Shown here: one piece after another, positions 7,657 to 62,329 of the stretch
How positions within the stretch are numbered: position 1 is the stretch's first letter
Layout: every line of letters begins with the position of its first letter
Assembly (NCBI GenBank): GCA_028688325.1
Contig: JAQTYI010000001.1
Location: 31,088 to 95,087, forward strand
From: Candidatus Portnoybacteria bacterium
GTDB taxonomy: Bacteria > Patescibacteriota > Minisyncoccia > Portnoybacterales > GWB1-42-6
DNA length: 64,000 bases
Reading direction: 5' to 3'
Made by a program: the position numbers and the translations under genes
Notes under the pieces: generated by a model
The model's input: only the letters and a program-made list of their open reading frames with translations
What the model was told of the DNA's origin: nothing
Databases searched by the model: none

Positions 7657-8769
7657 TCATAAAAGGCGATTCTTGTTTTTATGCTCCGCCAGCGACTCAT
7701 TCACGAACTTCTTTATTTTATCCTTAAAAACTTCCTTGTCGAACCTCTCTGCCTGCTGGCTGATGTATCTGGCGTTAAAATCAACCGGATTGAATTTCTT
7801 GAGCGCGCCAATCAATGCTTCGGGCGTTTGCTCGTCAAAAAATATGCCGGTTTTGCCTTCCTCCACTATTTCCAGCGCCCCGCCGCCGCGGAATGCTATC
7901 ACGGGCCGGCCCGCGGCCATGGCCTCAACGGCGGAAATGCCGAAATCCTCTTCTTGCGGAAAAATGAACGCCCGGCAATGCGCAAAATAATTAGGCAATT
8001 CCTTTTCCGCCACCAAGCCCGTAAATTCAATGTTCGGACCGGCTATTTTCCGAAGATGCCTCCTGTCCGGCCCGTCGCCGATAATTTTCAGCGGCCAGCC
8101 CAATTTGTTAAAAGCGACGATGGCCAGGTCGATTTTTTTATACGGCAAAAATCTGGCCAGCATTAAAAAATAGTCGTTATTTTTTCCGCTCAAATAAAAT
8201 CGCCTGGTTTTAACCGGCGGACAAACAACCTCCGCTCGCCGGCCGTAATATTTTTTAATGCGCGAAGCGACAAATCGGGAATTGGCCAGATAAACATCGG
8301 GCCTGGCCGAAGCCGCTTCGTCCCAAAGACGCAGATAATTCAAGAAAGGCGGGATGAACCGCTTGATCAGATTTGGATAACTGAACTCGTTTATGTATTT
8401 TTGGCTGTCGTCCCAAACATACCTGGTTGGCGTATGGCAATAGCAGATATGCAGCGTCCCCGGCCGGGTGATGATGCCCTTGGCGAAACTGGCCGAGTCA
8501 GAAATCACCAGGTCGTATTTCGCTAAATCGAACTGTTCAACAGCTAAGGGCATCAGCATCAAAAACGGCCGGTGATGGGATTTGACCATCGGTATCTTTT
8601 GCAAAAATGATGTTTTTATCTTGCGCCCTTCAAAAGCCGACCCCGTGCGCCGCCTGTCATAGACCAAAGTAAAAATGGGCGCTTCCGGCCAAATTTCACA
8701 AAAGGCCTCCAGCACCCGCTCGGCTCCGCCGTATTGATTTAAATAGTCGTGCACCAGCGCAACACGCAT
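7657..8769 (-). CDS. Glycosyltransferase family 4 (GT-B fold)
   Basis: N-terminal HDYLNQYGGAERV and C-terminal GT4 motifs (E..G.P.I; ..FPQEEDFGISAVEAMAAGRPVIA). Confidence 0.8.
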   Translation of the reverse strand: MRVALVHDYLNQYGGAERVLEAFCEIWPEAPIFTLVYDRRRTGSAFEGRKIKTSFLQKIPMVKSHHRPFLMLMPLAVEQFDLAKYDLVISDSASFAKGIITRPGTLHICYCHTPTRYVWDDSQKYINEFSYPNLIKRFIPPFLNYLRLWDEAASARPDVYLANSRFVASRIKKYYGRRAEVVCPPVKTRRFYLSGKNNDYFLMLARFLPYKKIDLAIVAFNKLGWPLKIIGDGPDRRHLRKIAGPNIEFTGLVAEKELPNYFAHCRAFIFPQEEDFGISAVEAMAAGRPVIAFRGGGALEIVEEGKTGIFFDEQTPEALIGALKKFNPVDFNARYISQQAERFDKEVFKDKIKKFVNESLAEHKNKNRLL

Positions 8770-8797
8770 AAAAAATTTAATAGTAAAATTGTATTTT

Positions 8798-8990
8798 CAA
8801 GCCGCCCATAGCGAAAAAATAATCAGAAAATCGAGATGAGCGAGTCGTTTAAAATCGCGTGCTATGGTGGGGCCCCAAGCGTCAGCTTGGGGCGTTGCGG
8901 ATAGCGATTTTAGATGAGCGAATCCGATTTTCTTTATTTTTTACGCTCGGGCGCGGTCTTTTGGCTACTTTTCTGCTGACAGAAAAGTAG
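8798..8990. repeat. About 200-bp structured intergenic repeat family, copy 1
   Basis: Shares ccgcccatagcgaaaa..aatcgagatgagcgag..cgtttaaaatcgc..ggggccccaagcgtcagcttggggcg..gcgattttagatgagcgaatccgatttt..ctacttttctgNNNNcagaaaagtag with the copies at 17907, 42311 and 49781, and more distantly with the copy at 62121. Confidence 0.75.
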
Positions 8991-9000
8991 CAAGATGATT

Positions 9001-10422
9001 TTATTTTCTCCTCCCCAACAGCACCACCAACGGCGTTTTAAATATTATCTTCAGATCCAGCCACAGAGACCAATTCTCGATATAATAAGCATCCAATTTC
9101 GCCTCTTCATCGAAATCTATTTCCGAGCGCCCAGAAATTTGCGCCAGCCCCGTGATGCCGGGCTTAACATTGAAAACTTTTTTATGCCACCTCTCATATT
9201 TGGCAACCTCTTTGGGCATATGCGGCCGGGGCCCGACCAAGCTCATATTACCAAAAAGCACATTAAAAAATTGCGCCAGTTCATCCAAGCTTGAGGCCTC
9301 CAGAAAACGGCCGAATTTCGTGCGGCGCGGATCGTTTAGAACCTTAAACACGGGGCCCTGCCGTCCGCTCTGCTTGGCGGCCAATTCATCTTCAAGCTCG
9401 CTGGCCTTGCCGTCTTTATCATACTGAGAACCGGTGCAATACTCTATTTTCATTGACCGGAATTTATAGGTATTGAAAATACCGTCCGGCCCGACGCGCT
9501 CATTTTTATATATCACGGGGCCCGGAGAATCCAGCTTCACCAGAGCCGCCACCACGGCCATGATGGGCGAAAAAATCACAATGCCGAAAATCGAACCGAA
9601 AAAGTCCAGCACTCTTTTGATTATTTTTCCCCAACCGTCAAGCGCCGTGCGCTTTAATTCAACCAGCGGAATTCCCGCCAGCGAGTCAAATTCGACATTA
9701 ATGGTCAGCGTCTGGAACAAATTGGGCACGAATTTAAAGGATAAGCGCCTCTCTTCGCAAAAATCGATCAGGCCCAAGACCTGCTCGCGGGCAAAATCGG
9801 GATTAGCCAGCATAACATCGTCTATCGATTCGCGCTTCACCGCTTCTTTTATTTTATCCAGGTCTAAATCCTGAAAATGTCCGGCCACATTATAGCCAAG
9901 AGATTTTTCGTCTTCCATTTCGCTTATCAATTCCTGCGATATCCTGTCTCCGCCCACGACCAAAATATTATGAACGCCGTATTTATAACGCGTGACTAAA
10001 AATCTTTGGATGGCGCGAACGACTATCCTGCCAAACAACACGAAAAATATCGCCAATATCCAGGCCGCGAATATCAAAAAACGAGAGTCAAACCATTCCC
10101 GGCGGATAAAACTATAAATAATCACCACGGCTAACCCCGCCGAAGCGCCAATGAGAATGCGCGCAAAGTTCTCCAAGATGCCGTTGGCGCGGCGTATCTC
10201 ATAAAGCCCGGACAGCGCGAAAATAATCAGCATAAAAAAGCCGATGAGCGCCGTTAAGCCCAGATATTTTTCCAGAGGCAAATTGATGCCAAAAAGCACC
10301 GGCCGCAAGCTGGCAACCAAAGAGCTTGTGCGCAGCCAATAAGCCGCCAGCCCGGCCAGCAATAGCATCAGATAATCCACCGGCACCAGCGCGGCTGTAA
10401 AAATTAGTTCGGATCGTTTCAT
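9001..10422 (-). CDS. Polyprenyl-phosphate sugar phosphotransferase (WbaP/bacterial sugar transferase family)
   Basis: N-terminal multi-TM region plus the C-terminal Bac_transf signature (VGPRPHMP..KPGITGLAQISGRSEI..WSLWLDLKIIFKT). Confidence 0.85.
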   Translation of the reverse strand: MKRSELIFTAALVPVDYLMLLLAGLAAYWLRTSSLVASLRPVLFGINLPLEKYLGLTALIGFFMLIIFALSGLYEIRRANGILENFARILIGASAGLAVVIIYSFIRREWFDSRFLIFAAWILAIFFVLFGRIVVRAIQRFLVTRYKYGVHNILVVGGDRISQELISEMEDEKSLGYNVAGHFQDLDLDKIKEAVKRESIDDVMLANPDFAREQVLGLIDFCEERRLSFKFVPNLFQTLTINVEFDSLAGIPLVELKRTALDGWGKIIKRVLDFFGSIFGIVIFSPIMAVVAALVKLDSPGPVIYKNERVGPDGIFNTYKFRSMKIEYCTGSQYDKDGKASELEDELAAKQSGRQGPVFKVLNDPRRTKFGRFLEASSLDELAQFFNVLFGNMSLVGPRPHMPKEVAKYERWHKKVFNVKPGITGLAQISGRSEIDFDEEAKLDAYYIENWSLWLDLKIIFKTPLVVLLGRRK

Positions 10423-10505: not shown

Positions 10506-10948
10506 GAAGTCCAAGCAAATCGGGCAATCGCCCTTCGCTACGCGAAGGGAGGAAAGTCCGAACTCTCTCTCCCTGCCACGGCGGGGTTAAAAAAGGTAGC
10601 GGCTAACAGCCGTCCATCGTAAGATGCGAGGTGCGAACAGTGACGATTTTATCCGAAAGGATAAAATCGCCCTCCGAAGCTTTACGCGTAGGAGGGCGCA
10701 ATTTGACCATAAGAAATTGCAAAATTTCCAAAGTCAAAATGAAACGGCAAAATCCTTACCGGGTGCAAGATCAAACTATGAGACCGCAAGCTTGGTTCTC
10801 ATAAGACAAGTAGATCGCCCGAGCCCCGCAGCAATGCGGGGCCCAGACAGATGATTGCCCATTCGCTCGTTGCATCGCCCAGGACTTGTCCTGAGCGAGC
10901 GCAGCGAGTCGAAGGACAAAATTCGGCTTATAGATTTGTTTGGACAAT
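10506..10948 (+). ncRNA. rnpB: RNase P RNA (bacterial type A-like)
   Basis: 5' GAAGUCCAAGC (P1); P3 hairpin cccttcgc-ta-cgcgaaggg; P4 5' strand AGGAAAGUCCGAAC; P4 3' strand ACAAAAUUCGGCUUAUA near the 3' end; the closing strand gatttgtttggac pairs with gtccaagcaaatc. A terminator hairpin follows at 10949-10980. Confidence 0.75.
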
Positions 10949-15176: not shown

Positions 15177-16016
15177 TTATTTCTGGCAGGCGGGGCAAAA
15201 ATGCGCCGAGCGCCCTCCTATTTTTATCCTTGCCACCCTGCCTTTACATTTTACACAATTTTCCCCTTCTCTGCCATAAACTTTCAACTTTGCCAGAAAC
15301 CCTCCCTTGCGGCCGAAGGCGTCCAAATAGTTGTTGGCCGAGGTGCCTTTCGATCGTATGGCTTCGGGCAATATCTTTTTAATGCCTTGATAGATTTTTT
15401 TTATCTCTCCCTTCTTCAGCGACTGGTTGCGCCGCAAGGGATGAACGCCCGCAAAGAATAATATTTCATCCGAATAAATGTTGCCGATGCCGGCGATAGT
15501 TTTCGGGTCCATTAAAAATTGCTTGATTTTTGCTTTGGGCTTTTTGGCCAGCAACGCTTCAAAATCGGCTAAGGCGAAATCTTTTTCCAGGGGCTCCGGC
15601 CCCAAGCCCTCTTTTATGAAAAATTCACCGAGTTTATTCGTGTCTGCCAGCTTAATATACCCGAACTGGCGCAAGTCGTTGAATAACAAACGGGTTTTAT
15701 CGCTGAAATGAAAAACCAGATGCGTGTGCTTGCTTTCTGCCATTAACTGTTTATTGCTTGCCGTTGACTGATATACCATCTGCCCCGTCATTTTAAGGTG
15801 CGCCAAAAAACTCCAGCCATTATCCAGTTCAAAAACCAATAATTTAGCGCGCCGACCGACTTTTCTTATTTTTGCACCTTTAAGGGCGCGCTTAAATTGC
15901 GCCAGCGGCGTTTTAACCATTTTAGCCAAGCGCACTTCAACTTCTTTTATTTTTTTTCCGCCAATCAACTTGGAAAGCTGCCGGCTGATTGTTTCAACTT
16001 CGGGCAATTCTGGCAT
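15177..16016 (-). CDS. mutM: Formamidopyrimidine-DNA glycosylase
   Basis: The N-terminus after Met is PELPEVE, with Pro2 as the catalytic nucleophile; H2TH domain; C-terminal zinc finger CxxC..CxxC. The ORF-track start 30 nt upstream (MNIAEFLLPGM) lies inside a MITE. Confidence 0.85.
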   Translation of the reverse strand: MPELPEVETISRQLSKLIGGKKIKEVEVRLAKMVKTPLAQFKRALKGAKIRKVGRRAKLLVFELDNGWSFLAHLKMTGQMVYQSTASNKQLMAESKHTHLVFHFSDKTRLLFNDLRQFGYIKLADTNKLGEFFIKEGLGPEPLEKDFALADFEALLAKKPKAKIKQFLMDPKTIAGIGNIYSDEILFFAGVHPLRRNQSLKKGEIKKIYQGIKKILPEAIRSKGTSANNYLDAFGRKGGFLAKLKVYGREGENCVKCKGRVARIKIGGRSAHFCPACQK

Positions 16017-16150
16017 ACCAGGTAGTAGAAATTCGGCTATATTCATAAATCCAAACGGACTTAATTAGTTTTGCCAAATTCTATGGTTTTATCAAACTCT
16101 ACCAGTCAGCGATGATTCGGTTAAACCGCCGAATTTTCACTACCTGGTAT
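16014..16150. mobile_element. MITE copy 1a with 20-bp terminal inverted repeats (cataCCAGGTAGTAGAAATT ... AATTTTCACTACCTGGtat), flush against the mutM start codon
   Basis: Perfect TIRs read from the sequence; ATA flanks on both sides, consistent with a 3-bp target-site duplication; the internal sequence is about 80% identical to copy 1b at 48770. Confidence 0.65.
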
Positions 16151-16252
16151 AAATTCAAGCTTATATCTGTTGCTTATATTTTACTCGCCAAACGCCGTAA
16201 AGCCAAGGTATGGGCGAAATAAAAAAGGGAGCCGCATGGACTCCCCGACCGG

Positions 16253-16676: not shown

Positions 16677-17894
16677 TTATAAAAGAACCTTGCCGCCAAT
16701 AATCACCCCGCAAACATCCCCGCCTTGCGCCGCATAGACCAAATGCGAGACCATATTATGACGCGGCTTTAGGCGCGGTTTGTCAAAGTCAATCAATACT
16801 ATATCGGCCTGCTTGCCGATGTCAATGGAACCGATATTTTTATCAATTTTCAACGCTTTGGCGCCGTTTATGGTCGCCATGTCCAAAATTGTCTGTGCGT
16901 CGGCCGCAGCGGGGTTTCTTTCGTCCCATTTATGGATCAGCGCGGCGATTTTCATCTCGCCAAACATATCCAGACAATTATTTGACGCCGGTCCGTCTGT
17001 GCCCAGTGCCACATTAACCCCGGCCTTCAATAATTTTCCCAGCGGCGCGACACCCGAAGATAGTTTCAAATTGGAAACCGGACAATGCGCCACGCTCACT
17101 TTTTGTTTGGCTAAAATTTTTATTTCCTTTTCGCTCAACCAACAGCAATGGGCCGCCACAACATTACCGCCCAAAAATCCTATTTTTTCCAAATATTCAA
17201 CCGGTTGGCATTTGTGTTTTGCCAGGCAATTTTTTACCTCCTCCTCTGTCTCCGATAAATGAATATGCAGCAACAGATCGTTGTCATCGGCAAATTTTTT
17301 ACACCAGCGCAAGGTCTCCTCGCTCACCGCATAAATCGAATGCGGAGTCAAAACCAGTTTTATGTCTTCACCCGTTTTCGATTTTAAGCGTTCGTATTCC
17401 GCGGCAATTTGCGCCGGACCAATGTCCATTCCGCCGCTATCCAACGCCGTCAAACCGACAAAATCCTGCAAACCTATCTCCCGCGCCGCCCTTATTTCCT
17501 GCGCCGGCTGCCAATACATATTATTGAAAGTCGTCGTGCCGCTTTGCAGCATTTCTTGGCAAGCCATTTTCGTTCCCCGACAAATATCTTCCGGCCCCAA
17601 TTTTGCCTCGGCCGGCCAAATCTTTTTTTCCAGCCAATCATTAAGCGGCATATCGTCGGCAAAACCTCTCAATAGCGACATGGCTGCGTGAGTGTGCGCG
17701 TTGATGAGTCCAGGAATCGCCACTTTGCCGCGCCCGTCGATTGTTTTCTTTTTCGCCTTGGCATATTTTTTCTCTAATTTAGCACTTTGGCCGATATCGG
17801 CGATTTTATTCCCCTCAGCCAAAATAGCGCCATCTTCAATGATTTGGCGCTTGCTGTTTTGGGTTACGATGGTTGTGTTCTTAATGAATATCAC
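16677..17894 (-). CDS. Amidohydrolase-family deaminase (MtaD/SAH-MTA deaminase-like chlorohydrolase)
   Basis: Metal-binding HxH (INAHTHAAM), HLSE, and C-terminal D.G..DIVL motifs of the amidohydrolase superfamily. Confidence 0.75.
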   Translation of the reverse strand: MIFIKNTTIVTQNSKRQIIEDGAILAEGNKIADIGQSAKLEKKYAKAKKKTIDGRGKVAIPGLINAHTHAAMSLLRGFADDMPLNDWLEKKIWPAEAKLGPEDICRGTKMACQEMLQSGTTTFNNMYWQPAQEIRAAREIGLQDFVGLTALDSGGMDIGPAQIAAEYERLKSKTGEDIKLVLTPHSIYAVSEETLRWCKKFADDNDLLLHIHLSETEEEVKNCLAKHKCQPVEYLEKIGFLGGNVVAAHCCWLSEKEIKILAKQKVSVAHCPVSNLKLSSGVAPLGKLLKAGVNVALGTDGPASNNCLDMFGEMKIAALIHKWDERNPAAADAQTILDMATINGAKALKIDKNIGSIDIGKQADIVLIDFDKPRLKPRHNMVSHLVYAAQGGDVCGVIIGGKVLL

Positions 17895-17906
17895 CTTGTT
17901 TTTTCT

Positions 17907-18136
17907 CCGCGCATACGAAAAACTTTAAGACAAAATCGAGATGAGCGAGGCGTTTAAAATCGCGTGCTGTGGCGGGGCCCCAAGCGTCAGCTTGGGGCGT
18001 TGTGCATAGCGATTTTAGATGAGCGAATCCGATTTTGTTAAAGTTTTATCGCCGCACGGGAACTCTTTTGCTACTTTTCTGGTTACAGAAAAGTAGATTA
18101 AATTATATTAACCTGGATTCCCGCTTTCGCGGGAAT
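17907..18136. repeat. About 200-bp structured intergenic repeat family, copy 2
   Basis: See copy 1. This copy adds a terminal hairpin attcccgc-tttc-gcgggaat. Confidence 0.75.
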
Positions 18137-18150
18137 GACAGCCGGAGATA

Positions 18151-19185
18151 TTAATTCAGGTTCAACGAATGTATATCCAAAATATATCCCCGATAATCGC
18201 CGCTGCCGACATATTTATAGGTCGGCAAGCCGATGAGCTGGCCGGCCGAATTTATCGCCGCGCCGCCGGAATTGCCCCTGTCAATTTGCGCGTCCGTGCC
18301 AAAATATATATCGCCGGAAGTCAGATTACTGATTATCCCCTTGGTCACGGAAAAATTGAATTTGGCCGATTCCGGGAAGCCGACGATGTAAACCGGATCG
18401 CCGATCTGCGGCTGGCCAACAGCCGACCGAAAAAATTGAAAAGAGTTCAAAATGGGCGCGTTCTGCGTCTGGCCGCCGGCATCCTGATAGATTACATCCT
18501 GAACTTTCAGCAAGGCCGCATCGCGTCCGCTAAAATACCCTGCCACCACCGCCCGATATTCCCTTTTATAGCTCTGGCTGGCGGTGTCATAATCGCCGCT
18601 AAAAAGCACCAGGCAGTAATCGGGCGTTTGCCCGGAAGAAAGCTGCGCCACATGCTGATTGGTTAAGATTTTTCCATCGCTGCTTATCAAAACTCCCGAA
18701 CCCAATTGCCAGGCGCCCAGAGATTTATTTTCACAAGCGATTTGCACCACCTTTTCACTGGCTTTCCATGTTTGTATCAAATTAGCATCACCTCCCGCAA
18801 AGGGCGTTTGGCCGCTTTGCGCCTGAAGCTGCTGCAATTGTTTTTCCAGCGAACTGATTTTTTGGTTTGCGCTGCTTAACGCTTCTTGCGTTTTCAGGTC
18901 CGGCGCTGGAGAGGGCGAAGCGAAAGTCAATGCAACGGCCGAAGGTTGTTTTTTCAGCGCCTCAACTTCTCTTCTTAATTGATCAATCTCCGATTGAGTT
19001 GAAGTTCCGTTGGTATTCAACGATTTAGGAACCAAAGAAAAATCCAATTTTAAATTATTCTGGCCGCCAAAAACTGAGGTAATTTCCCTGAAGATCTTGG
19101 TTTGATATTTGTATATTAAAAAACCGGCCGCACCGACGGCCATTAAAGAAATGGTGACCAAAAAAATAAAATATCTCCTGCTCAT
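18151..19185 (-). CDS. Trypsin-like serine protease (HtrA/S1C-like, no PDZ domain) with N-terminal TM and coiled coil
   Basis: Catalytic triad contexts LTNQHV (His), DAALLKV (Asp) and GNSGGAAIN (Ser). Confidence 0.7.
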   Translation of the reverse strand: MSRRYFIFLVTISLMAVGAAGFLIYKYQTKIFREITSVFGGQNNLKLDFSLVPKSLNTNGTSTQSEIDQLRREVEALKKQPSAVALTFASPSPAPDLKTQEALSSANQKISSLEKQLQQLQAQSGQTPFAGGDANLIQTWKASEKVVQIACENKSLGAWQLGSGVLISSDGKILTNQHVAQLSSGQTPDYCLVLFSGDYDTASQSYKREYRAVVAGYFSGRDAALLKVQDVIYQDAGGQTQNAPILNSFQFFRSAVGQPQIGDPVYIVGFPESAKFNFSVTKGIISNLTSGDIYFGTDAQIDRGNSGGAAINSAGQLIGLPTYKYVGSGDYRGYILDIHSLNLN

Positions 19186-19189
19186 TTTA

Positions 19190-20422
19190 TTACAATGTAA
19201 ACAGATAATAAAACAATAAAACATCGCCCAAAACCAGAAGAACCATAGTCAGCCACCCGCCAAACACGCTTAAGCGCGTGCAGCAAAAATTTCCCATTAC
19301 TTTAGGTTCTCTGGCCAAGCGCAAAATTAAATAGATTATGACCGGCGTTATAGCGCCGACCATTACCTGCGAATAAAATAACGCCTTGATGGGGTTCAAG
19401 TCAAACAGCAACGCGGCCAGACAGAAAACAAAACCGAATGTTATCATCCCGTAAAACCCTTTGGCTTGGCTCGGTTTCCGGTTCAAACCCTCGGGCAGCT
19501 TGAAAAATTCGGCTATGCCATAAGCCGAAGAAACCGCCAAAATAGGAATTGCCAAAATACCCGAACCGATAAGGCCCAAACCGAACAGTTTCGTGGCCCA
19601 CGGCCCGGCCACCGGCGCCAACGCCCGGGCGATGTCTTTAACGGTCAAAATATTTATATCGGTCTTGAGCATAACGCTGGCGCTGGCCACGATGACAAAA
19701 AACGCCGCTAAGGCGCTGTAAATAAATCCCAGCACCACCGCCCGGCTCGAAGAGCTGATCTGCTTTGCGCCTCGCGCCTCTTCGATTTCCTGTTCCGTCT
19801 GCCAAAAAAACGCGTAGGGAGAAAAACTGGTTCCTATCAAGCCCAAGGCCGCCATAAAATACGCAATATTAAATTTTATCGGCGGATAAATGATCGATTT
19901 GAAAATCAAGCCCCAATCGGGCTTAGCCAGGATGCCGGCAAAAAAATAAGCCAGAATGATGCCGGCGAACCAGAAAAAATACCGGGCGATCTTTTTATAG
20001 CTGTCAAAAACTATCACATACCAGACGAAGATTATCAGCGGAACGATGAAATAAATATAATTCCAGCTGGTTAAAAGCTGGAAACCCGCGGCCATGCCGA
20101 TAATATCGGCCACCAGCGTCAGAAGATTGGCCACGACCAAAACCAACACCGCCAAAAGGGCCACGCGCCGGCCGAAATGTTCCTTTATCAAAGTTATGAG
20201 CCCCTTTTTGGTAACATCGCCTATTCGCGCCGTTATCTGATGGATGGCGATAAGCAGAGGAGTTGAAACCAAAAGAAGCCAGAGCTGAGAAAACCCCGTT
20301 GTCGCACCGATCACCGAGTAAGTGGAAATGCTTGACGGATCGTCATCCGCGCTGGCCGTTATGATGCCCGGCAGATAGGACCGGCGAAATCGTTTTATCG
20401 GTTTTAAAAAATAGTGGAGCAT
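19190..20422 (-). CDS. NRAMP-family divalent metal (Mn2+/Fe2+) transporter
   Basis: GIITASADDDPSSISTYSVIGATTGF..LWLL matches the NRAMP DPGN-region consensus; 10-11 predicted TM helices. Confidence 0.7.
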   Translation of the reverse strand: MLHYFLKPIKRFRRSYLPGIITASADDDPSSISTYSVIGATTGFSQLWLLLVSTPLLIAIHQITARIGDVTKKGLITLIKEHFGRRVALLAVLVLVVANLLTLVADIIGMAAGFQLLTSWNYIYFIVPLIIFVWYVIVFDSYKKIARYFFWFAGIILAYFFAGILAKPDWGLIFKSIIYPPIKFNIAYFMAALGLIGTSFSPYAFFWQTEQEIEEARGAKQISSSSRAVVLGFIYSALAAFFVIVASASVMLKTDINILTVKDIARALAPVAGPWATKLFGLGLIGSGILAIPILAVSSAYGIAEFFKLPEGLNRKPSQAKGFYGMITFGFVFCLAALLFDLNPIKALFYSQVMVGAITPVIIYLILRLAREPKVMGNFCCTRLSVFGGWLTMVLLVLGDVLLFYYLFTL

Positions 20423-24166: not shown

Positions 24167-24176
24167 TTTATGGAAT

Positions 24177-25169: not shown

Positions 25170-25212
25170 AAATTATGATCTGTCATTCTGGCGAAAGCCA
25201 GAATCCAGGTTT

Positions 25213-25470: not shown

Positions 25471-25535
25471 CAAGAATATAAACATAATAATTCTTCAAAT
25501 TCATTCCTGGATGCCGGGTCAAGCCCGGCATGATA

Positions 25536-28544: not shown

Positions 28545-28640
28545 CTAATGTCTAATGAAATACCCAATGCCAAATGTCCAAATGTCCCGCAGAGCGGGAC
28601 TGAATTAGAAATTAGTAATTAGAAATTTGACATTTTTATT
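28545..28640. repeat. AT-rich ATGACA/TGTCAT-rich palindromic intergenic element
   Basis: Member of a family also present at 30965-31135, 31860-31990, 32805-32890, 36535-36715 and 62600-62695. All are tandem aaatgacNaa units arranged as long imperfect palindromes at gene boundaries. Confidence 0.5.
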
Positions 28641-30964: not shown

Positions 30965-31135
30965 AATATAAAATTAATTAACTATTAAAAGATATACGAA
31001 AAACGATAAAATGTCAAATGACGAATGACTAATGACAAATCAATTTCAAAGCCCAAAATCCAAATTTTGACATTGGACATTAGGATTTTATTTGTCATTT
31101 GTCATTGGAAATTAGTCATTTAAGACAAGTTCCTT
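30965..31135. repeat. AT-rich ATGACA/TGTCAT palindromic intergenic element
   Basis: aaatgtcaaatgacgaatgactaatgacaaatc ... gacattggacattagg ... tttgtcatttgtcattgg. Confidence 0.5.
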
Positions 31136-31162: not shown

Positions 31163-31912
31163 CTACTTCCCGCTCGCCCCGTTCCACCCCTTGGCCGCCA
31201 GCGCGTTTTCAGCCGCTTTTTGCTGGGCATCCTGCTTGGAAACCCCCTCGCCCTCAGCTACCAGCTCATCATTCAAATATACCCCTATCTTAAAATTCTT
31301 TGCGTGATCCGGCCCCCACTCTTTCAAGACCTCGTAGCTCGGCGTGATGCCCGCCCGCTCCTGCGCCTCTTCCTGGAACATGCTTTTGGCGTCGCGATAC
31401 GCTCCTTCTTTCAGAATTTCCGGCAGATGAGCCAAGATATTTTTTTCTATGAACTCGCCCGCCACCTCGATTCCCTGGTCCAGGAATATCGCGCCGATAA
31501 GCGCTTCCATCGTGTTGGCTAAAATATACTGGCGCGCCCGGCCGATATCTTTGGATTCGCCGCGGCTTAACATCAAAAAATCATTAAGACCGATGGCTTC
31601 GGCGATTTCCGCTAATTTTTTAGCGTTGACCAAAGCGGCGCGCCAATTGGTCAGCTCGCCTTCGGGATTGGGATAGGTCGCGTAGAGATGCTTGGTGACG
31701 ACCAATTCCAGCACCGCGTCGCCCAAAAATTCCAACCGCTCGTTATGGGGCAACTGGAAATCAGGATTTTCATTCAGAAAAGACCGGTGCACGAACGCCT
31801 GCTGCAGCAGATCCTTATTTTTAAAAGATACGCCTATCTTATTCTCGAGTTTAAATAGCTCCTTCATTACAAAATCCAAATGACAAAATCCAAATGACCA
31901 ATCAATGACCAA
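31163..31912 (-). CDS. rnc: Ribonuclease III
   Basis: ERLEFLGDAVLELVV RNase III signature and a C-terminal dsRBD. Confidence 0.9.
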   Translation of the reverse strand: MVIDWSFGFCHLDFVMKELFKLENKIGVSFKNKDLLQQAFVHRSFLNENPDFQLPHNERLEFLGDAVLELVVTKHLYATYPNPEGELTNWRAALVNAKKLAEIAEAIGLNDFLMLSRGESKDIGRARQYILANTMEALIGAIFLDQGIEVAGEFIEKNILAHLPEILKEGAYRDAKSMFQEEAQERAGITPSYEVLKEWGPDHAKNFKIGVYLNDELVAEGEGVSKQDAQQKAAENALAAKGWNGASGK

Positions 31913-31990
31913 GCCCTAAATCCCAAAAATTCATTTTGACATTAGGATTTGGGATTTTATTTGTCATTGGGACTTTGACATTTGACATTA
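31860..31990. repeat. AT-rich ATGACA/TGTCAT palindromic intergenic element
   Basis: aaatccaaatgacaaaatccaaatgacc..cctaaatcccaaa..tttgggatttt..gtcattggg..gacatttgacatt. Confidence 0.5.
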
Positions 31991-31994
31991 AAAA

Positions 31995-32798: not shown

Positions 32799-32891
32799 AT
32801 CTTTAAAATTTCTAAATCCTAATTTCTAATTTCTAAACCAATCCTCGCTCCGCGAGGACTTCATTAGACATTAGATATTAGAAATTTGTCA

Positions 32892-34970
32892 TTATTTAGT
32901 GAACGGTATCAGCCCCATATTGTCCAAATAGCTTCTGGCGCTTTTGTTGTTCGGCTCAATTTCCAAAACTTTTTGCCAGGCGCGGCGCGCTCCGGAAAAA
33001 TCCCCCTCCTGATAATAAATCCTGCCCAGCGGCAGATAAGCATCAATATATCCGTCGTCCAATTCTATCGCCTTTTTGAAATAGGCCTTGCTTCGTTCGG
33101 TATCGTTTTTTGCCTCGCAGAGCATCCCGTTCGCCAGCCAAACCTGCTTGGCGCCGGGATTTTGTTCCAGCGCCCGGTCAAATGCCTGAATGGCCAAATC
33201 GTTAAGGCCCGCTGTTTGGAAAAACGAACCCAAACGCACTGAATCAAAAAAATCATTGTCGACCAAGTATTTGTAAATATACCGGCCTAAATTTTCTTGA
33301 TTCAAGGCGTATTTGAGGATCAAGGGTTTATTGGCTTGATTGTCCCGGGCCCAGATAACGATTGCCGAGTCGAGATAAACCATCTTCCAGCCGCTCCTTT
33401 GCACCATCCGGCGAATAAATGATTGCCCCCAGGGAGTCGCGTCGGTATGGGCGAAAAAAACAAAATTTATCCCATAGGTATCATCTGCGTATTTTTGCCA
33501 GGCCGCATCGCCTGTCTGCATCGGAATATATACCGATTGAAAAAAATCCGCCGGATACGCTTCGGGCCGGCCGTCAATAAAAACTTTGTAATCGGGCCAG
33601 GCCTTCCAAATAAGAAAACCGCCGATATCAAAATTATTGAACATGGGGCCGGAAACCCTATTCTGTTTTAAAAAATCAATCGCCGCATCCGCTCCCGCCG
33701 GGATGCCCAAGCCGAAGCGCTCGCTTTCCATTGATTTTAAGTAAAAACGGTTGGAAACAACCGAGTAAATACTCCCAATTAAAATAACAAAAATAAGGGC
33801 AATGGTCAAGAGATGCGCGACGCCTCTCAGCCGGATTTTCTCCCATCTGGCAAAATATCTGGCATATTGCTCGCGAGCACAAGCAAAATTAGCCGATAAA
33901 ACCGGGATAGCCGCCAGCCCCAACAACGGAAAATTGCGTATAGCCGACCAAGAAGTTATAACGAAAAATACCGATAAAAACAAATAAAACGGCCTCATCT
34001 TGCGCCAATTGAACAAAAAAGAGACAGCCAGCGCCGCCAGCGTTATTTTAAAAAAAATGATCGCGGGATTGAACATCAGCTTCTCCAAAAAGAACGGCGA
34101 CTGATTTTCCGCGATGGAATAGCCGTAGTTGTTAAAAATATAAAAGGGATAAAGTGCGCCGCGCCAAACATTGGGGTTTGCCAGCGCCGCCGCGCCGGCG
34201 AGCAACCCAAGCAAAATAACCTGCGCCATATAACGGTCCAATTTTTTCTGCCGCGCCAAAAGATACACGGCGCGGCGGCGCATCCAGAGCCGATCCAGAA
34301 AAAAGAAAAATATCAGCGCAAGGCCGTAGATAAAAGAAATATGCAAATTGACCCAAAGCAGCTCCAGCGGGATAAGTAGCCAAAAAGACCGGGAGATTTT
34401 TTCTTTATTTTTGTCCAGGATAAAAAGAAACAGAGCGAAAAGCAAAAATCCGAAGGTCTCGGGCCTGATATCCGTGCGCTCCAAAATCAATCCCGCGCCG
34501 AGAATTGCCGCCAAAATGGAAAAAATTAAATATTTTTTTCGCCAAGCCAGCTTCCAGACCAGCGCAAACGCCGCCAAAATGATTAAAGCGTTAAAAATTA
34601 TGAGGCCCTTAATGCCAATGGCCAAAGACAGCAAATAATAAATGACTTCGCTCAGCCAGTGATGATTGACGAATGGAAAGTTGGGATTGGTATAAGAAAA
34701 AAAGTTGGTATCCGGGATCTGCTTAGTATGCCAAATTAATTCGCCCAATTTCAAATGCCGGCCCAAATCCTGATTCACGGCCGAAGCGCTGTGAATTAAA
34801 AAAACCGCCAATGTCATCAAGACCAGCTCGACTAATATCCACTTCGAAACGACCGGCCAGCCGAGATCAAACTGGCGGCGATCGACGCTTTTTTTATTTT
34901 TTGGCGCCTCGACCGGCTGCGAAAATCTTTGATCGTCGGGGATCAATTGAAACATATTTTTATTATACAT
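32892..34970 (-). CDS. Large polytopic membrane protein with C-terminal TPR repeats (putative glycosyltransferase/oligosaccharyl-transferase-like)
   Basis: More than 10 hydrophobic helices, then TPR-like repeats (AIQAFDRALEQNP, AYFKKAIELDDGYIDAY, ARRAWQKVLEIEPNN). Confidence 0.55.
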   Translation of the reverse strand: MYNKNMFQLIPDDQRFSQPVEAPKNKKSVDRRQFDLGWPVVSKWILVELVLMTLAVFLIHSASAVNQDLGRHLKLGELIWHTKQIPDTNFFSYTNPNFPFVNHHWLSEVIYYLLSLAIGIKGLIIFNALIILAAFALVWKLAWRKKYLIFSILAAILGAGLILERTDIRPETFGFLLFALFLFILDKNKEKISRSFWLLIPLELLWVNLHISFIYGLALIFFFFLDRLWMRRRAVYLLARQKKLDRYMAQVILLGLLAGAAALANPNVWRGALYPFYIFNNYGYSIAENQSPFFLEKLMFNPAIIFFKITLAALAVSFLFNWRKMRPFYLFLSVFFVITSWSAIRNFPLLGLAAIPVLSANFACAREQYARYFARWEKIRLRGVAHLLTIALIFVILIGSIYSVVSNRFYLKSMESERFGLGIPAGADAAIDFLKQNRVSGPMFNNFDIGGFLIWKAWPDYKVFIDGRPEAYPADFFQSVYIPMQTGDAAWQKYADDTYGINFVFFAHTDATPWGQSFIRRMVQRSGWKMVYLDSAIVIWARDNQANKPLILKYALNQENLGRYIYKYLVDNDFFDSVRLGSFFQTAGLNDLAIQAFDRALEQNPGAKQVWLANGMLCEAKNDTERSKAYFKKAIELDDGYIDAYLPLGRIYYQEGDFSGARRAWQKVLEIEPNNKSARSYLDNMGLIPFTK

Positions 34971-34996: not shown

Positions 34997-35728
34997 TTAG
35001 CCATCAAAAGATTCTTTTTTACAAGGCACGAAACTCCGCCGATGTATGGAGCAGGCGCCGTATTGTCCGATGGCCGCCATATGCGCTCGCGTGCCATAGC
35101 CCTTATGAGAATCAAAGCCGTATTGCGGAAATTTGGCATGATATTTTAACATCAGCCGGTCGCGCGTGACTTTGGCGATAATGGAGGCCGCGGCGCAAGA
35201 CCAGATCTTTTCGTCTCCGCGAGTTACGGCTTTTTGGCTGACAGACAGGTCTTCCAATAAAAAATTGCCGTCCAGCAGGAGATAATCCGGCTCCCCTTTC
35301 AAGTCAACCAGCGCCCGCTTCATCGCCAGCTTTGTCGCTTCCAGAATATTTATCCGGTCGATTATTTTTTCCGAAACGATGCCGATGCCATATTTTATAT
35401 CGGGGCTGGCGGCCAAGATTTCAAACCACCTTTCTCGCTGATTGGCGGAAAGCTTTTTAGAATCGCGGATTTGAAGCCGCTTTTCTGTCCTTCTCGCGCC
35501 ACGCCCCTCGGTAGCCATGGGCGAAGGAGGGAAAGCGGGACTCCAGGGCCTGGATCCCGGGTCAAGCCCGGGATGACAAATCAGGACCGCCGCAGCAACC
35601 ACCGGTCCGGCCAGCGGCCCGCGGCCGACCTCGTCCAGGCCGACCACAAAATCATAGCCCTGCCGCCAAAGCTTTTGCTCATAACTGAAATCCGGATTTA
35701 TGGATTTTTGCTCTGCCAGTATTATCAT
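34997..35728 (-). CDS. rnhB: Ribonuclease HII carrying an in-frame insert of about 30 aa encoded by a palindromic repeat
   Basis: GLDEVGRGPLAGPVVAAAV...DSKKLS are RNase HII motifs. The extra CHPGLDPGSRPWSPAFPPSPMATEGRGARR maps onto the repeat ccagggcctggatcccgggtcaagcccgggatgacaa at 35530-35577. Confidence 0.85.
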   Translation of the reverse strand: MIILAEQKSINPDFSYEQKLWRQGYDFVVGLDEVGRGPLAGPVVAAAVLICHPGLDPGSRPWSPAFPPSPMATEGRGARRTEKRLQIRDSKKLSANQRERWFEILAASPDIKYGIGIVSEKIIDRINILEATKLAMKRALVDLKGEPDYLLLDGNFLLEDLSVSQKAVTRGDEKIWSCAAASIIAKVTRDRLMLKYHAKFPQYGFDSHKGYGTRAHMAAIGQYGACSIHRRSFVPCKKESFDG

Positions 35729-35793: not shown

Positions 35794-35930
35794 CATATGC
35801 CAGGTAGTGAAAATTTGACGGGTTATTTTTTCCGTAAAAATCCTGCCGAATCTTTACAACCTCGGCAAATATGTATATATAATAAATTTGACTTATTAAT
35901 TATTTAGTCAAATTTCTACTACCTGGTATG
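35794..35930. mobile_element. MITE copy 1c (same 20-bp TIRs as 1a and 1b, divergent interior), flush against the start codon of the 35928 ORF
   Basis: catatgCCAGGTAGTGAAAATT ... AAATTTCTACTACCTGGtatg; TATG/ATG flanks consistent with a target-site duplication. Confidence 0.6.
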
Positions 35931-36533
35931 GCGGAAAATAAATTAGGCCTCAATTGGTCGGCCGCGGAAAAAGCCCTGGCCGAAGGAACTTTTTCTGGCT
36001 ACAAAATCGGCATACTGGAAACCGAAAAGATATTCGAGGAGTTGCTCAAGAATAAGCAGATCCCCGGCGGCTCAACCGAACGCAAAATAAAATACATTCA
36101 GCGCTTTTTAAGCTTGCCGGATAAGCTGGATTACAGCCAGCATGTTTATGAGCGCATCCTGCACGAGCCGCATTTTGAGATATCGCGCGAAGAAACAAAG
36201 CACATAATTTCCGGCTACTGGCAGGCCATGCTGGACATTGAAGAAGCGGTCGCCTCTTTGAGCATGCGGGAAAAAATTTCACTAAGAGCCCGATATATTT
36301 CAGCTATGGCGGTAAAAAATGCGCGCAATGTTGTTTTGGCGATTTTGGGCGTCTCCGCTGTTATCTGGTTCCTGGCCGAAACGAATATCGGCAAAAAGAT
36401 CGCCTCTGTAATTATTGCCGCCAATCATTTTTTTATTTTTAAATTTCTGTTCTGGACAATGGTCATATTGGCAATACTGCTGGTCATCGGCGGCGTACTG
36501 TATTTTTTGACAAGAAGGAAGAAGCGCTTTTAG
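35928..36533 (+). CDS. Hypothetical membrane protein (C-terminal TM helices)
   Basis: ORF whose ATG immediately follows the MITE TIR. Confidence 0.5.
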   Translation: MAENKLGLNWSAAEKALAEGTFSGYKIGILETEKIFEELLKNKQIPGGSTERKIKYIQRFLSLPDKLDYSQHVYERILHEPHFEISREETKHIISGYWQAMLDIEEAVASLSMREKISLRARYISAMAVKNARNVVLAILGVSAVIWFLAETNIGKKIASVIIAANHFFIFKFLFWTMVILAILLVIGGVLYFLTRRKKRF

Positions 36534-36534
36534 A

Positions 36535-36715
36535 ATGCCAAATGACGAATGCCTAATGACTAATCAATACCAGCTTCGCTGGTATCCCGCAGTTGCGGGA
36601 TGATTGCCGAGGCAATCAAAGCTCAAAATCCAAATTTGACATTGAGGCATTGGGATTTTATTTGTCATTAGTCATTGGAAATTTGTCATTTCATAAAATT
36701 TTACCAAATCACATC
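36535..36715. repeat. AT-rich ATGACA/TGTCAT palindromic intergenic element with three central mini-hairpins
   Basis: ccaaatgacgaatgcctaatgactaatcaa..taccagcttcgctggta..tcccgcagttgcggga..gattgccgaggcaatc..gacattgaggcattggg..tttgtcattagtcattgg. Confidence 0.5.
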
Positions 36716-42278: not shown

Positions 42279-42310
42279 AGTTCCTCGCGCATATAAAGAA
42301 CCTTATCATT

Positions 42311-42587
42311 CAAGCCGCCCATAGCGAAAATGGGGGTTGTTCTGCCGCGCATACGAAAAACTTTAAGACAAAATCGAGATGAGCGAGGCGTTTAAAATCG
42401 CGTGCTGTGGCGGGGCCCCAAGCGTCAGCTTGGGGCGTTGTGCATAGCGATTTTAGATGAGCGAATCCGATTTTGTTAAAGTTTTATCGCCGCGCGGGAA
42501 CTCTTTTGCTACTTTTCTGGTTACAGAAAAGTAGATTAAATTATATTAACCTGGATTCCCGCCCCGCATTTGATGCGGGGCGGGAAT
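42311..42587. repeat. About 200-bp structured intergenic repeat family, copy 3 (extended)
   Basis: Nearly identical to copy 2. The terminal hairpin is lengthened to attcccgccccgca-tttga-tgcggggcgggaat, with pairing preserved. Confidence 0.75.
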
Positions 42588-42600
42588 AACAATATATACG

Positions 42601-48772: not shown

Positions 48773-48903
48773 ACCAGGTAGTAGAAATTCGGTTATATTC
48801 ATAAATCCATACGGATTTTTAAATTGCCGAATTCTATAGTTTTATCAAATTTTGCCAATTAGTGATAGTTAACTAAACTGCCGAATTTTCACTACCTGGC
48901 ATA
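48770..48903. mobile_element. MITE copy 1b with 20-bp TIRs, flush against the gatB start codon
   Basis: cataCCAGGTAGTAGAAATT ... AATTTTCACTACCTGGcat; the interior is about 80% identical to copy 1a; ATA flanks. Confidence 0.65.
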
Positions 48904-49754: not shown

Positions 49755-49780
49755 TAAATTTATAAATAATGATTCGGATT

Positions 49781-49973: not shown

Positions 49974-49985
49974 CGAGGAAAAAAA

Positions 49986-58872: not shown

Positions 58873-58888
58873 AATAATTTTACTTGTT

Positions 58889-62120: not shown

Positions 62121-62310
62121 AACCGCCCATACGAAAAATTTTGTTATAAATTCGCGATGAGCCGAGCGTCTAAAATCGCCGGCGGGACGAGAAAGCGAAA
62201 CGAGTTGTTCGCGGTGATTTTAGCGAGGCGAATTCGAATTTGTCAAAATTTTATCGTCAGGCGGCGGTTTTTCCGCCGCTTTGGCGTTTACCCCGTTCTA
62301 CGGGGCCGGC
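62121..62310. repeat. About 200-bp structured intergenic repeat family, copy 5 (divergent)
   Basis: Shares the 5' box aaccgcccatacgaaaa..gcgatgagc..gcgtctaaaatcgc and a two-hairpin 3' architecture (gcggcgg-ttttt-ccgccgc; ccccg-ttcta-cgggg), but with different stem sequences. Confidence 0.55.
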
Positions 62311-62329
62311 AAAAAAGCGGCAAAAGATT

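Follow-up and report, generated by a model that had tools for sequence, protein, structure and literature searches.

The hairpin repeat found in five copies in the window, the 64-kb (64,000 nt) stretch of Candidatus Portnoybacteria DNA analysed here, is an undescribed and probably mobile DNA element of the ultra-small Patescibacteria. It is approximately 190–205 bp in length, non-coding, and interspersed, and its orientation follows the direction of replication, not the direction of the neighbouring genes. The chances are about even that it is a non-autonomous DNA element that combines a single strand folded at the replication fork with a one-way transcription module. Patescibacteria genomes are tiny, with hardly any sequence between the genes, and very little is known of their promoters, terminators, and mobile DNA.

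Copies of the repeat and their distribution

As the initial annotation had reported, the repeat is a real five-copy family. A repeat search and a covariance model (CM) built from the copies agree on five and only five copies in the window. All are + strand, with CM scores of 138–216 bits, and with the filters off the CM search gave no further match in the window above 34 bits. The copies were said to sit in short gaps between housekeeping genes, which is borne out by Pfam annotation of the neighbours; the occupied gaps are tiny, and copies are spaced 7–24 kb apart along the chromosome, approximately one per 10–20 kb.

Copy c1 (8800–8992, +, the model strand; 211.9 bits) lies between a GT1 glycosyltransferase gene (7657–8769, −) and a sugar transferase gene (9001–10422, −). 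Copy c2 (17905–18097, +; 212.7 bits) is flanked by an amidohydrolase gene (16677–17894, −) and a trypsin-like protease gene (18151–19224, −). Copy c3 (42343–42535, +), identified by the CM, is between thrS (40524–42278, +) and a PMT gene (42601–44103, +), both of them lagging-strand genes; c2 and c3 are 98 % identical across 227 nt, at unrelated loci. Two solo 5′-box remnants can be read upstream of c3, tcgcgcatataaagaa (42285–42300, +) and ccgcccatagcgaaaa (42315–42330, +). It is the second of these that lies at 42311, where this copy was first placed, and the intact copy runs from 42343. Box remnants also adjoin copies in loci L135, L021, L030, L020, L014, and L022. Copy c4 (49781–49975, +; 197.8 bits) is between folD (48912–49790, −) and glyA (49986–51215, −), and copy c5 (62121–62322, +; 138.4 bits) is between gatA (60656–62113, −) and gatC (62330–62611, −). 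The apical domain of c5 is divergent, and there is an additional mini-hairpin inside the loop of its second hairpin.

A copy opens with a 155-nt imperfect hairpin, which a T-run separates from a second hairpin of 28 nt (hairpin 2). In c1, folding and RNAalifold place the long hairpin at 8802–8956 (+), with the T-run tctttt directly 3′ of it (8957–8962, +) and hairpin 2, gctacttttctg-ctga-cagaaaagtagc, at 8964–8991 (+). The flank profile shows that this is followed by a semi-conserved A-then-T-rich tail, aagatgattttat (8992–9004, +), which in c1 includes the stop codon of the upstream gene (9001–9003, −) and which is missing from empty sites. From the base upward, the c1 hairpin has a GC clamp (ccgccc/ggcgcgg), an A/T tract, and a 7-bp stem (aaaatcg/cgatttt), followed by an internal region with bulges and two tandem G.A motifs (assigned through inspection of c1 and c4), a 9-bp stem (taaaatcgc/gcgatttta), a G.T-rich helix, and an apical GC hairpin (ccccaagc-gtca-gcttgggg). 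In terms of the parts previously listed, this one 155-nt hairpin has the 'box' and 'aatcgagatgagcgag' as its 5′ arm and 'gcgattttagatgagcgaatccgatttt...acgctcgggcgcgg' as its 3′ arm, and 'hairpin 1' is the tip only.

The searches gave 43 copies in 41 genome loci and 109 in 120 metagenome loci, which after removal of redundancy leaves 122 sites from Patescibacteria MAGs and metagenomes. Its known hosts are a Patescibacteria clade, Portnoybacteria-like CPR bacteria, and the family is usable as a clade marker. MAGs with the family include JACQXN01, JAHKAK01, JAHIST01, JAZDMV01, JAKLIA01, and JAQTTM01, and there are close relatives without it. No match to the element was found by blastn against 72,556 plasmids and 50,697 phages, it is absent from the viral contigs searched, and literature searches did not find a CPR repeat or ncRNA like it. 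At the gathering threshold, Rfam 15 identifies only RNase P RNA and three tRNAs in the whole window, leaving the repeat unmatched as had been expected, and an E-value scan of 8750–9010 returned chance matches only (E > 3). One copy is divided across two contigs, L041 (at its end) and L036 (at its start), and copies are a likely source of contig breaks in CPR MAGs.

Orientation relative to replication

Relative to both flanking genes, the element is in the opposite direction at 63 sites and in the same direction at nine. The GC skew of the flanks is negative in the model orientation at 57/58 of the 'opposite' sites and also at 6/8 of the 'same' sites; at the 'same' loci, the per-gene skew marks the flanking genes as lagging-strand. 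With GC skew and gene-strand bias taken as a proxy for replication direction, in place of mapped origins, approximately 100 out of 103 sites (~97 %) share one orientation. The whole window has a single skew sign, and c3 is still on the + strand inside a block of lagging-strand genes. Likewise, all five copies found via folD synteny (5/5) obey the orientation rule, two of them in a lagging block. Where the element is between two lagging-strand genes, seven to eight sites follow replication and one follows the genes. The lock could have been produced by selection, with head-on firing as one thing that might be selected against, and not by the mechanism of insertion.

Promoter-like and terminator-like signals

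A sigma70-type match is present on the reverse strand of the element, the lagging-strand template; it is made up of an A/T tract, TTGAnA, a spacer usually of 18 nt, and TAAAWT, and is directed with the fork; this promoter and the terminator described below are predictions from consensus matches. Matches of at least 9/12 are present on the reverse strand in 94/112 copies, on the model strand in 4/112, and in 12 % of shuffles. The sequence pattern used to gather copies includes the −10 box in complementary form, and the figures from the 112 copies for the 18-nt spacer and the invariant −10 are therefore inflated, the unbiased copies having spacers of 18–20 nt. Of the 13 copies outside the search pattern, seven have at least 9/12 at the 18-nt spacer and 11 reach this with spacers up to 20 nt, at positions that are not always homologous. 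The invariance of a 12-nt segment of the 3′ arm (79/80) was dropped as a spacing constraint, since the length of this internal segment is fixed by the collection pattern.

The match in c5 is TTGACA-18-TAAAAT (11/12; 62217–62246, −), directed at gatA. TTAACA-18-TAAAAT is present in c2 (18012–18041, −), directed at the start of the amidohydrolase gene, and in c3 (42450–42479, −), where it is antisense into the 3′ end of thrS. The −35 boxes are weak in c1, which has TAAAGA (8936–8931), an 18-nt spacer, and the −10 TAAAAT (8912–8907) in the segment 8907–8936 (−), and in c4, which has TAAAGA-18-TAAATT (49888–49917, −). The promoter-like match is directed into a gene start at 68/78 sites (87 %).

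On the model strand only (+ in the window), the GC-clamped hairpin and T-run look like an intrinsic terminator. A run of T4–T7 is at most 10 nt from the base of the hairpin in 111/112 copies; the stem is unusually long for a terminator and a simple terminator scanner makes no call. If the element does bring along a promoter and a terminator that works one way, this high-copy repeat, which sets adjacent genes 200 bp apart, would be one of the chief causes of rewired operons in CPR bacteria.

The promoter-like boxes, as consensus matches, fall within base-paired stem on the reverse strand, and on that strand only, which is a likeness to a class of single-strand promoters. The M13 minus-strand origin is reportedly of this hairpin-promoter kind. 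In Frpo/ssi and sso elements, hairpins of 50–350 nt, acting on one strand in an orientation-specific manner, rebuild a duplex −35, −10, and A/T-rich upstream tract with their complements (PMC11541004, PMC4595007). The repeat may be a promoter or origin-like element of this type (sso, Frpo, M13 ori(−)), although this appears distinctly unlikely. The exposed lagging-strand template would fold, the stem would rebuild the duplex −35 and −10, and RNA polymerase would make a short RNA towards the loop; this RNA would prime or restart DNA synthesis, or serve in making the second strand when the element passes through a single-stranded intermediate. A single model would then cover the lock to replication as well as the hairpin and a promoter geometry specific to one strand, and the promoter-bearing strand is the lagging-strand template, as such a model requires. 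Just 3′ of the −10 on the reverse strand there is also a 10/13-nt C/A-rich bubble in type-A copies, but it is not kept in type-B copies. However, a spacing of 7–24 kb is far too sparse for routine priming of the lagging strand, and the empty gaps in close relatives make an essential host role unlikely. Frpo, sso, and M13 belong to plasmids, ICEs, or phages with a free single-stranded stage, whereas these copies are chromosomal and dispersed among housekeeping genes, with none in the leading region of a plasmid or carried by an ICE or a rolling-circle plasmid, and have no sequence similarity to plasmids or phages. The strand relation would be predicted equally if the promoter must run with leading-strand genes.

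Insertion sites and mobility

In its behaviour the element resembles a dispersed or mobile repeat that is not autonomous. Filled and empty versions of the same gap can be paired (L017 with window positions 24167–24176, L015 with L135, L002 with L150, and L126 with L044), and the glyA/folD gap of c4 is occupied in L035, L023, L172, and L168 and empty in L167. Occupancy varies among close and more distant relatives alike, and many gene gaps of close relatives are without the element. One gene gap contains different subfamilies in genomes where the flanking proteins are 67–81 % identical. In some copies an optional module, a 115-nt palindrome, is nested at one fixed point between the long hairpin and hairpin 2; none of the 122 sites has an autonomous version with a gene at this point. 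Genes bracketed by two copies are unremarkable, namely GT2, YqeY, and a conserved hypothetical. There is no ORF inside the element, and full Pfam annotation of the window identifies no transposase, only housekeeping genes.

Terminal inverted repeats (TIRs) are absent, the ends (CCGCSC... and ...GCGGCA or GTAGCA plus the A/T tail) being alike over 4–5 nt only. Target-site duplications (TSDs) are likewise absent at all boundary offsets for k = 3–8, the best count being 9/99 at k = 3 with 3 expected, and no target motif is conserved in the flanks (information < 0.6 bit per position).

The initial annotation had offered a MITE as one reading. This holds as far as non-autonomous, dispersed or mobile behaviour is concerned, and the repeat is short, non-coding, and many-copy, with filled and empty sites, as for a DDE-transposon MITE; in the strict sense it does not hold, given the lack of TIRs and TSDs. 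Among the close comparisons are ERIC/IRU (127 bp) and the Correia/NEMIS repeats of Neisseria, which have TIRs and TA target duplications (PMC2229807, Table 1). In common with these, the element is a 100–200 bp, non-coding, high-copy, intergenic repeat with one long imperfect hairpin, in which some copies have an optional insert at a fixed point; Correia repeats also have putative promoters, and both families are co-transcribed with their neighbours with orientation-dependent effects (PMC2229807). Unlike them, the hairpin element has neither TIR nor TSD, has an extra 3′ hairpin, is from a different phylum, and shares no sequence similarity. We know of no report of replication-locked orientation for ERIC or Correia.

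It is rather improbable that the element is a double-strand, MITE-like repeat, moved by cut-and-paste or otherwise and with an outward promoter as in Correia or ERIC, whose orientation bias came from later selection through loss of copies with an operon-facing terminator or a head-on-firing promoter. It is like those families in its size and intergenic position, in coding for nothing, and in its long hairpin, optional module, and promoter-like boxes (PMC2229807), and a promoter directed at gene starts at 68/78 sites would suit such selection. Besides the absence of TIRs and TSDs, the sites between lagging-strand genes follow replication (7–8 versus 1), where selection on gene expression would predict the reverse, and c3, a young copy by its 98 % identity to c2, is already replication-consistent while antisense to the local genes.

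Covariation and the level of action

The c1 fold has a free energy of −98.2 kcal/mol (z = −9.6), and RNAalifold on the five window copies gives 73 pairs, with both sides changed in 19. The conserved, covariation-backed structure claimed initially is confirmed by an alignment of 112 copies, in which 93.0 % of cells are paired and 60/73 pairs show compensatory changes; none of 500 shuffles was as good (0/500) and slid controls pair at 43–51 %. In hairpin 2 (helix 9), 98.8 % of cells are paired across the 112 copies and 8/12 pairs have a compensatory change. The individual changes that had been pointed out, ccccaagc/gcttgggg versus ccccgacc/ggtcgggg and ctac../..gtag versus ccgc../..gcgg, are also correct.

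The conclusion drawn from them, selection on RNA structure, is not supported. In the 59 Watson–Crick-dominated pairs there are 103 G.U cells, 66 A.C cells, and 82 other mismatches, versus 5770 Watson–Crick cells; G.U is therefore barely more common than A.C, unlike in a functional RNA. In addition, orientation follows replication, and the strand with the G.U pairs is without a promoter. Six alignment columns do have conserved G.U pairs on the model strand, as would suit a role of some kind for the RNA or for that strand. As DNA, the two strands fold about equally well; as RNA, the model strand folds better (−98 versus −80 kcal/mol). The flank profile shows no conserved promoter signal upstream on the model strand (information < 0.5 bit), and often only 5–15 nt separate the element from the neighbouring start codon. 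With neither a sign of a promoter nor room for one, a free-standing RNA gene is not supported.

A structured RNA, either a trans-acting multi-copy sRNA or a cis element in operon transcripts (RNase III site, stabiliser, or terminator), is very unlikely: although the very strong covariation, the better RNA fold and G.U columns of the model strand, the terminator-like hairpin with its U-run, the RNase III encoded in the genome (31163–31912), and the inevitable co-transcription of most copies with their neighbours are in its favour, the main stems show no preferential tolerance of G.U, there is no Rfam family, the model strand lacks a promoter and often has a start codon close by, and the direction of the flanking genes is ignored wherever replication and genes disagree, so that 87 % of sites have one strand in the mRNA and 13 % the other. 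The element looks like one that acts at the DNA level, rather than as a free-standing ncRNA gene, and gives rise to false calls of 'structured ncRNA' in covariation screens.

Proposed mechanism and related systems

In the non-autonomous DNA element proposed here, the hairpin would matter as folded ssDNA exposed at the replication fork. Spread, past or present, would be via a replication-coupled single-strand mechanism with a putative enzyme, analogous but not identical to the 'peel and paste' transposition of IS200/IS605. A resident copy would start or pass transcription directed with the fork, at 87 % of sites into a downstream gene start, and would stop transcription that opposes the fork.

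IS200/IS605 elements have a strong replication orientation bias since the lagging-strand template is where their active strand has to be (PMC5027513, PMC6006769). The element resembles IS200/IS605, PATEs, and REP/REPIN-RAYT in having no TIR or TSD, hairpins near both ends, asymmetric ends, and replication orientation bias. Unlike IS200/IS605, it has no conserved tetra- or pentanucleotide target beside its end, and its two hairpins (155 nt versus 28 nt) are dissimilar and unrelated. A cognate Y1 transposase with matching ends was not found in the 1.1 Mb of loci, where tblastn with TnpA/RAYT queries identified one IS200-type tnpA (L125), the end hairpins of which differ from and are unrelated to those of the element. 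At 190 nt it is also unlike REP sequences (20–40 nt), and it is without a GTAG or CGTC tag.

A near-absolute replication lock without the sequence hallmarks of IS200/IS605 would point to an unknown mechanism of single-strand mobilisation or to single-strand promoter hairpins in a chromosome. To our knowledge, such promoter hairpins have been seen so far only in plasmids, ICEs, and ssDNA phages. A bolder version, which we consider doubtful, is that the repeat represents a new class of fork-coupled ssDNA element. The template-strand hairpin would offer a sigma70 promoter, and either RNA polymerase would use it for priming or restart or an unknown recombinase would move the element without target motif, TIR, or TSD; the copies would then be polar 'valves' that launch co-directional and halt head-on transcription across a minimal CPR genome.

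Other resemblances were considered and rejected. A K-turn or box C/D-like reading of GAUGAGCGA has the bulge and G.A pairs in the wrong order, and a hammerhead core lacks C3 and U4 and has no Rfam match. Integron attC sites are not a match, there being no R/L boxes and the copies being outside cassette arrays. The ATAGCG in the box, similar to the ssoA CS-6 (TAGCGT), covaries as part of a stem, and likewise the GTAG of hairpin 2, which becomes GCGG through covariation, is stem sequence, not a REP tag. The 'hairpin 3' that had been included in the repeat (18114–18138 and 42552–42589) is not part of the element. It belongs to a separate REP-like hairpin family, which has at least nine copies in the window.

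Structure of the repeat

Exactly five copies of the main element were recovered in the window, in agreement with the initial annotation, using a repeat search and a covariance model (R1) built from the window copies themselves. All five, numbered c1 to c5 by position, are on the + strand, at 8800-8992, 17905-18097, 42343-42535, 49781-49975, and 62121-62322, with scores of 138-216 bits. The next-best R1 matches in the window, with filters off, are reverse-strand echoes of at most 34 bits. The third copy had been placed at 42311; that coordinate is a solo 5′-box remnant, as is 42285-42300, and the intact copy is c3. Over 227 nt, c2 and c3 share 98 % identity, and c1 and c4 have ~83 % identity to the other window copies.

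The element folds at -98.2 kcal/mol (z = -9.6), far outside chance. The ‘box’ and aatcgagatgagcgag, previously annotated as separate parts, together form the 5′ arm of one long imperfect hairpin of 155 nt (8802-8956 in c1), with gcgattttagatgagcgaatccgatttt...acgctcgggcgcgg as its 3′ arm and the former hairpin 1 as its apex. The base of this hairpin is a GC clamp. Above it come an A/T tract and a 7-bp stem, then an internal region that can be read as bulges and two tandem G.A motifs, and beyond that a 9-bp stem (taaaatcgc/gcgatttta), a G.T-rich helix, and the variable apical hairpin; there are at least three types of apical domain. The long hairpin is followed by a T-run (8957-8962 in c1), hairpin 2 (8964-8991 in c1), and a semi-conserved A/T tail. 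Hairpin 3 had been included in the element, and instead belongs to a separate REP-like family. At least 12 copies, belonging to different subtypes, have an optional palindromic module of ~115 nt (CTGCCCGCCGATAACCAAAGCT...AGCTTTGGCAGGCGCGGC) nested between the long hairpin and hairpin 2, always at one exact position (L031:1064-1180, L027:4230-4370, and also L023, L114, L116, L117, L137, L158, L077, and L051, all loci outside the window). The module may represent an optional domain, or else a separate element with this position as its target.

Distribution and turnover

The search of relatives proposed in the initial annotation was made with a pattern scan from the 3′ arm and then the covariance model. 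Among species-representative genomes it identified 43 copies in 41 loci, almost all in Patescibacteria MAGs, three Candidatus Portnoybacteria assemblies among them; in 120 metagenome loci it identified 109 copies. Merging of near-identical sites, with redundancy removed solely by shared 21-mers, left 122 non-redundant sites. The majority of copies are on MAG and metagenome contigs of 1-15 kb, and sequence statistics for the 3′ arm are biased, as sampling used a pattern from it. Copies are usually 5-40 nt from each neighbouring gene, supporting the earlier description of short gaps between housekeeping genes. Viral contigs and the records of phages and plasmids contained no match. Comparison with Rfam 15, also proposed previously, gave no match either when the whole window was scanned at gathering thresholds or when the element was scanned with E values up to 10, and no description of such an element was found in the literature. 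The main family is a widespread, undescribed, hairpin-forming non-coding dispersed repeat.

The family shows mobile-element-like turnover. In locus L017, a copy lies between orthologues of window genes that stand 10 nt apart (24167-24176), and ~200-bp insertions into 2-10-nt spacers are seen in comparisons of L015 with L135, L002 with L150, and L126 with L044. The gene gaps of c1, c2, and c4 are also filled in genomes with flanking proteins 67-81 % identical, but by different subfamilies. In the folD-syntenic sample, gathered through the gene neighbourhood of c4 (glyA/folD gap), those gaps are empty, or have a degraded copy or a different structured element. Remnants (5′-box or hairpin 2 fragments) adjoin intact copies. 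The element has no ORF and no terminal inverted repeat (TIR); there is no target-site duplication (TSD) at its boundaries and no conserved flanking motif around its copies. No transposase is present in the window. The sole IS200-type tnpA in 1.1 Mb of loci (148 aa; L125:2740-3310) is 5 kb from a main-element copy, thus a Y1 transposase is present on an element-bearing contig, however its own flanking hairpins (ccccgcgcctccgtgcgcgggg, ccccgccgctccgtcggcgggg) are unrelated to the main element.

Conservation of base pairing

Standard pairs make up 93.0 % of cells across 112 copies, with compensatory change in 60 out of 73 pairs (1086 cells); these values were reached by none of 500 shuffles, and control pairing with the 3′ partners slid by 1-3 columns was 43-51 %. 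The alignment is fitted to the model and this favours structure, nonetheless the margin is very large, and the result is similar on 46 copies. The conserved pairing with compensatory changes reported in the initial annotation is therefore supported.

In functional RNA, G.U is normally tolerated far better than A.C. Here, the 59 mostly Watson-Crick pairs contain 5770 Watson-Crick cells, 103 G.U, 66 A.C, and 82 other mismatches. G.U is not much better tolerated than A.C, and the pairing statistics do not look like those of RNA. There is conserved G.U in six columns on the model strand (the strand of R1, which is + in the window). When folded as DNA, both strands give the same hairpin with similar energy.

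Orientation and replication

Orientation of the main element is locked to replication, not to genes, with fork direction taken by proxy from GC skew and gene-strand bias, and with some sites possibly orthologous. The model strand is opposite to both flanking genes at 63 sites, where flank GC skew in the model orientation is negative in 57 out of 58, counting those with at least 2.5 kb of flank. It is the same as both flanking genes at nine sites (negative in six out of eight on the same basis), and at six sites the relation is mixed. In the ‘same’ loci the element is flanked by lagging-strand genes, with sense skew of at most 0.05, versus +0.1 to +0.35 for genes on the other strand of the locus (per-gene skews). 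Between two lagging-strand genes, seven to eight sites follow replication and one follows the genes. The window has one skew sign throughout and ~80 % of its ORFs on the - strand; the five copies are uniformly +, and this includes c3, which lies within the block of + strand genes at 36-47 kb. Five copies ascertained solely via folD synteny all obey the rule, two of them in a lagging block, and there are three exceptions (L053, L035:2379, and L151/L016) in ~103 sites. This pattern makes the model strand the C-rich one and puts its complement on the lagging-strand template.

Promoter-like and terminator-like sequences

A promoter-like box pair is present on the lagging-strand-template strand and a terminator-like layout on the other, both as consensus matches. 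Sigma70-like matches of at least 9/12 are found at one homologous position on the reverse strand in 94 of the 112 copies (at least 10/12 in 56); on the model strand the count is 4 out of 112, and among shuffles the share is 12 %. Typical boxes are TTGATA-18-TAAAAT or TTAACA-18-TAAAAT, the -35 box being in the outer stem, behind the A/T tract, and the -10 box opening the 9-bp stem. The palindromic partner on the model strand has a 22-24-nt spacer, due to the 5′ arm being 4-6 nt longer there than the 3′ arm. On the - strand of the window, c5 has an 11/12 match (62246..62217), c2 and c3 have TTAACA-18-TAAAAT, and c1 and c4 have a weak -35.

Because the collection pattern contains the -10 complement and fixes the 3′-arm length, -10 conservation and the 18-nt spacer figure, including the invariant 12-nt 3′-arm segment in 79 out of 80, are inflated by ascertainment; -35 box identity is not imposed by the pattern. 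Thirteen copies were not pattern-selected: eight are the second copy in their locus, and five come from folD synteny, two of which still match the pattern. Seven of the thirteen have an 18-nt spacer and at least 9/12, and 11 reach 9/12 or more when spacers of up to 20 nt are allowed, although some of these matches lie away from the homologous position; on the model strand no copy reaches 9.

On the model strand, 111 out of 112 copies have a T4-T7 run no more than a few bases beyond the GC-clamped hairpin, which is an intrinsic-terminator layout. The reverse strand has A-rich sequence in place of the T-run.

Relationship to known elements and possible function

In form, the main element most resembles ERIC/IRU and Correia elements; these are characterized by long hairpins, promoters, co-transcription, and an internal module that is optional (PMC2229807), but the main element differs from them in its lack of TIR and TSD. 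In behaviour, its nearest counterparts are IS200/IS605-type and REP/RAYT systems, with their hairpins, absence of TIR and TSD, and lagging-strand orientation bias (PMC5027513, PMC6006769), although it does not share their target motif, matching end hairpins, or cognate transposase. Its stem design resembles single-strand promoters and origins (PMC11541004, PMC4595007), but its location and sequence do not. The family is filed here as a bacterial interspersed palindromic repeat or non-autonomous element, outside any named family.

The best explanation, with about an even chance of being correct, combines folded single-stranded DNA at the fork, replication-coupled single-strand movement, and a one-way transcription module. 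The conserved pairing would serve folded single-stranded DNA at the replication fork. The element would move, or have moved, by a replication-coupled single-strand mechanism, which would account for the orientation lock and for the absent TIR and TSD. A resident copy may permit or start transcription running with the fork, and may halt transcription against it; the with-fork direction is into the start of the downstream gene at 68 out of 78 sites.

It is unlikely that the element is instead an sso/Frpo-like single-strand promoter; this would explain in one model why there is a hairpin, why the promoter geometry is confined to one strand, and why orientation is locked, and the strand relation is as that model demands. 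Against it, the copies are sparsely spread on the chromosome and relatives can dispense with them. An ordinary MITE with an outward promoter, its orientation bias due to selection, is likewise improbable, being contradicted by the missing TIR and TSD and by the lagging-gene sites. The MITE alternative in the initial annotation is partly correct, as to a dispersed non-coding repeat with mobile-like turnover, but not in the strict sense, given the missing TIR and TSD. Least probable is a structured RNA. In its favour are the covariation, the columns of fixed G.U, and the terminator-like layout, but it is contradicted by the wobble counts, the promoterless model strand, and the orientation rule, and the earlier attribution of compensatory changes to RNA-level selection is not supported.

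Other repeats and neighbouring genes

The REP-like family contains 25-45-nt hairpins (CCTGGATyCC[stem]-loop-[stem]GGrATGACA) in at least nine copies in the window, at 18114-18138, 25183-25207(-), 25508-25533, 35551-35576, 42552-42589, 46806-46831(-)/46837-46862(+), 54561-54586, and 56590-56636(-)/56629-56672. Its stems covary (CCCGGG, CCCGC, CCTGA, TCTGGC), copies are in both orientations, and two sets are head-to-head doublets, REPIN-like. An element of ~140 bp at 16014-16151 and 48770-48903, with a partial copy at 35901-35930, has ~23-bp terminal inverted repeats (ATACCAGGTAGTrGAAATTCGG) and is a MITE of the classical TIR type, with no relationship to the main family.

Outside the window, a 5′-box-like sequence (TTCCAAGCCCATAGC) is found 3′ of a copy, overlapping a sugar-transferase stop codon (L036:140-185, L041:3854-3900); in the window, tandem 5′-box remnants lie upstream of c3. 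The glyA/dut-folD gap in close relatives (L165:1349-1524, L169:9075-9269) has a different structured element (GAGCGAGGAT...AAACGCTCA...GAGCGGGCACGG-hairpin-GAGCGAG...), which in L165 begins with the 5′ box of the main family, GCGCATACGAAAAATTTTA. A main-family copy at L165:9483-9704 has foreign inverted repeats in place of its middle.

In a related MAG, gyrB (L166:1-1878, JBGGHE010000094.1) contains an intein (PF14890) that the window gyrB (56713-58926) lacks. The bacterial type A RNase P RNA at 10512-10946 (+) barely passes the Rfam threshold (109 bits versus 100), with several large insertions and missing helices. AT-rich palindromic intergenic repeats of GACATT/AATGTC-like units (28597-28637, 31007-31123, 31869-31992, 32804-32896, and 36531-36693) flank rpiB, rnc, nusB, rpmF, and dnaE. 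Between fba and the next gene, the window has a 129-aa PD-(D/E)XK gene (PF13366; 22476-22865, - strand) with AT-rich repeats either side, whereas this fba-adjacent gap contains a main-element copy in L017.
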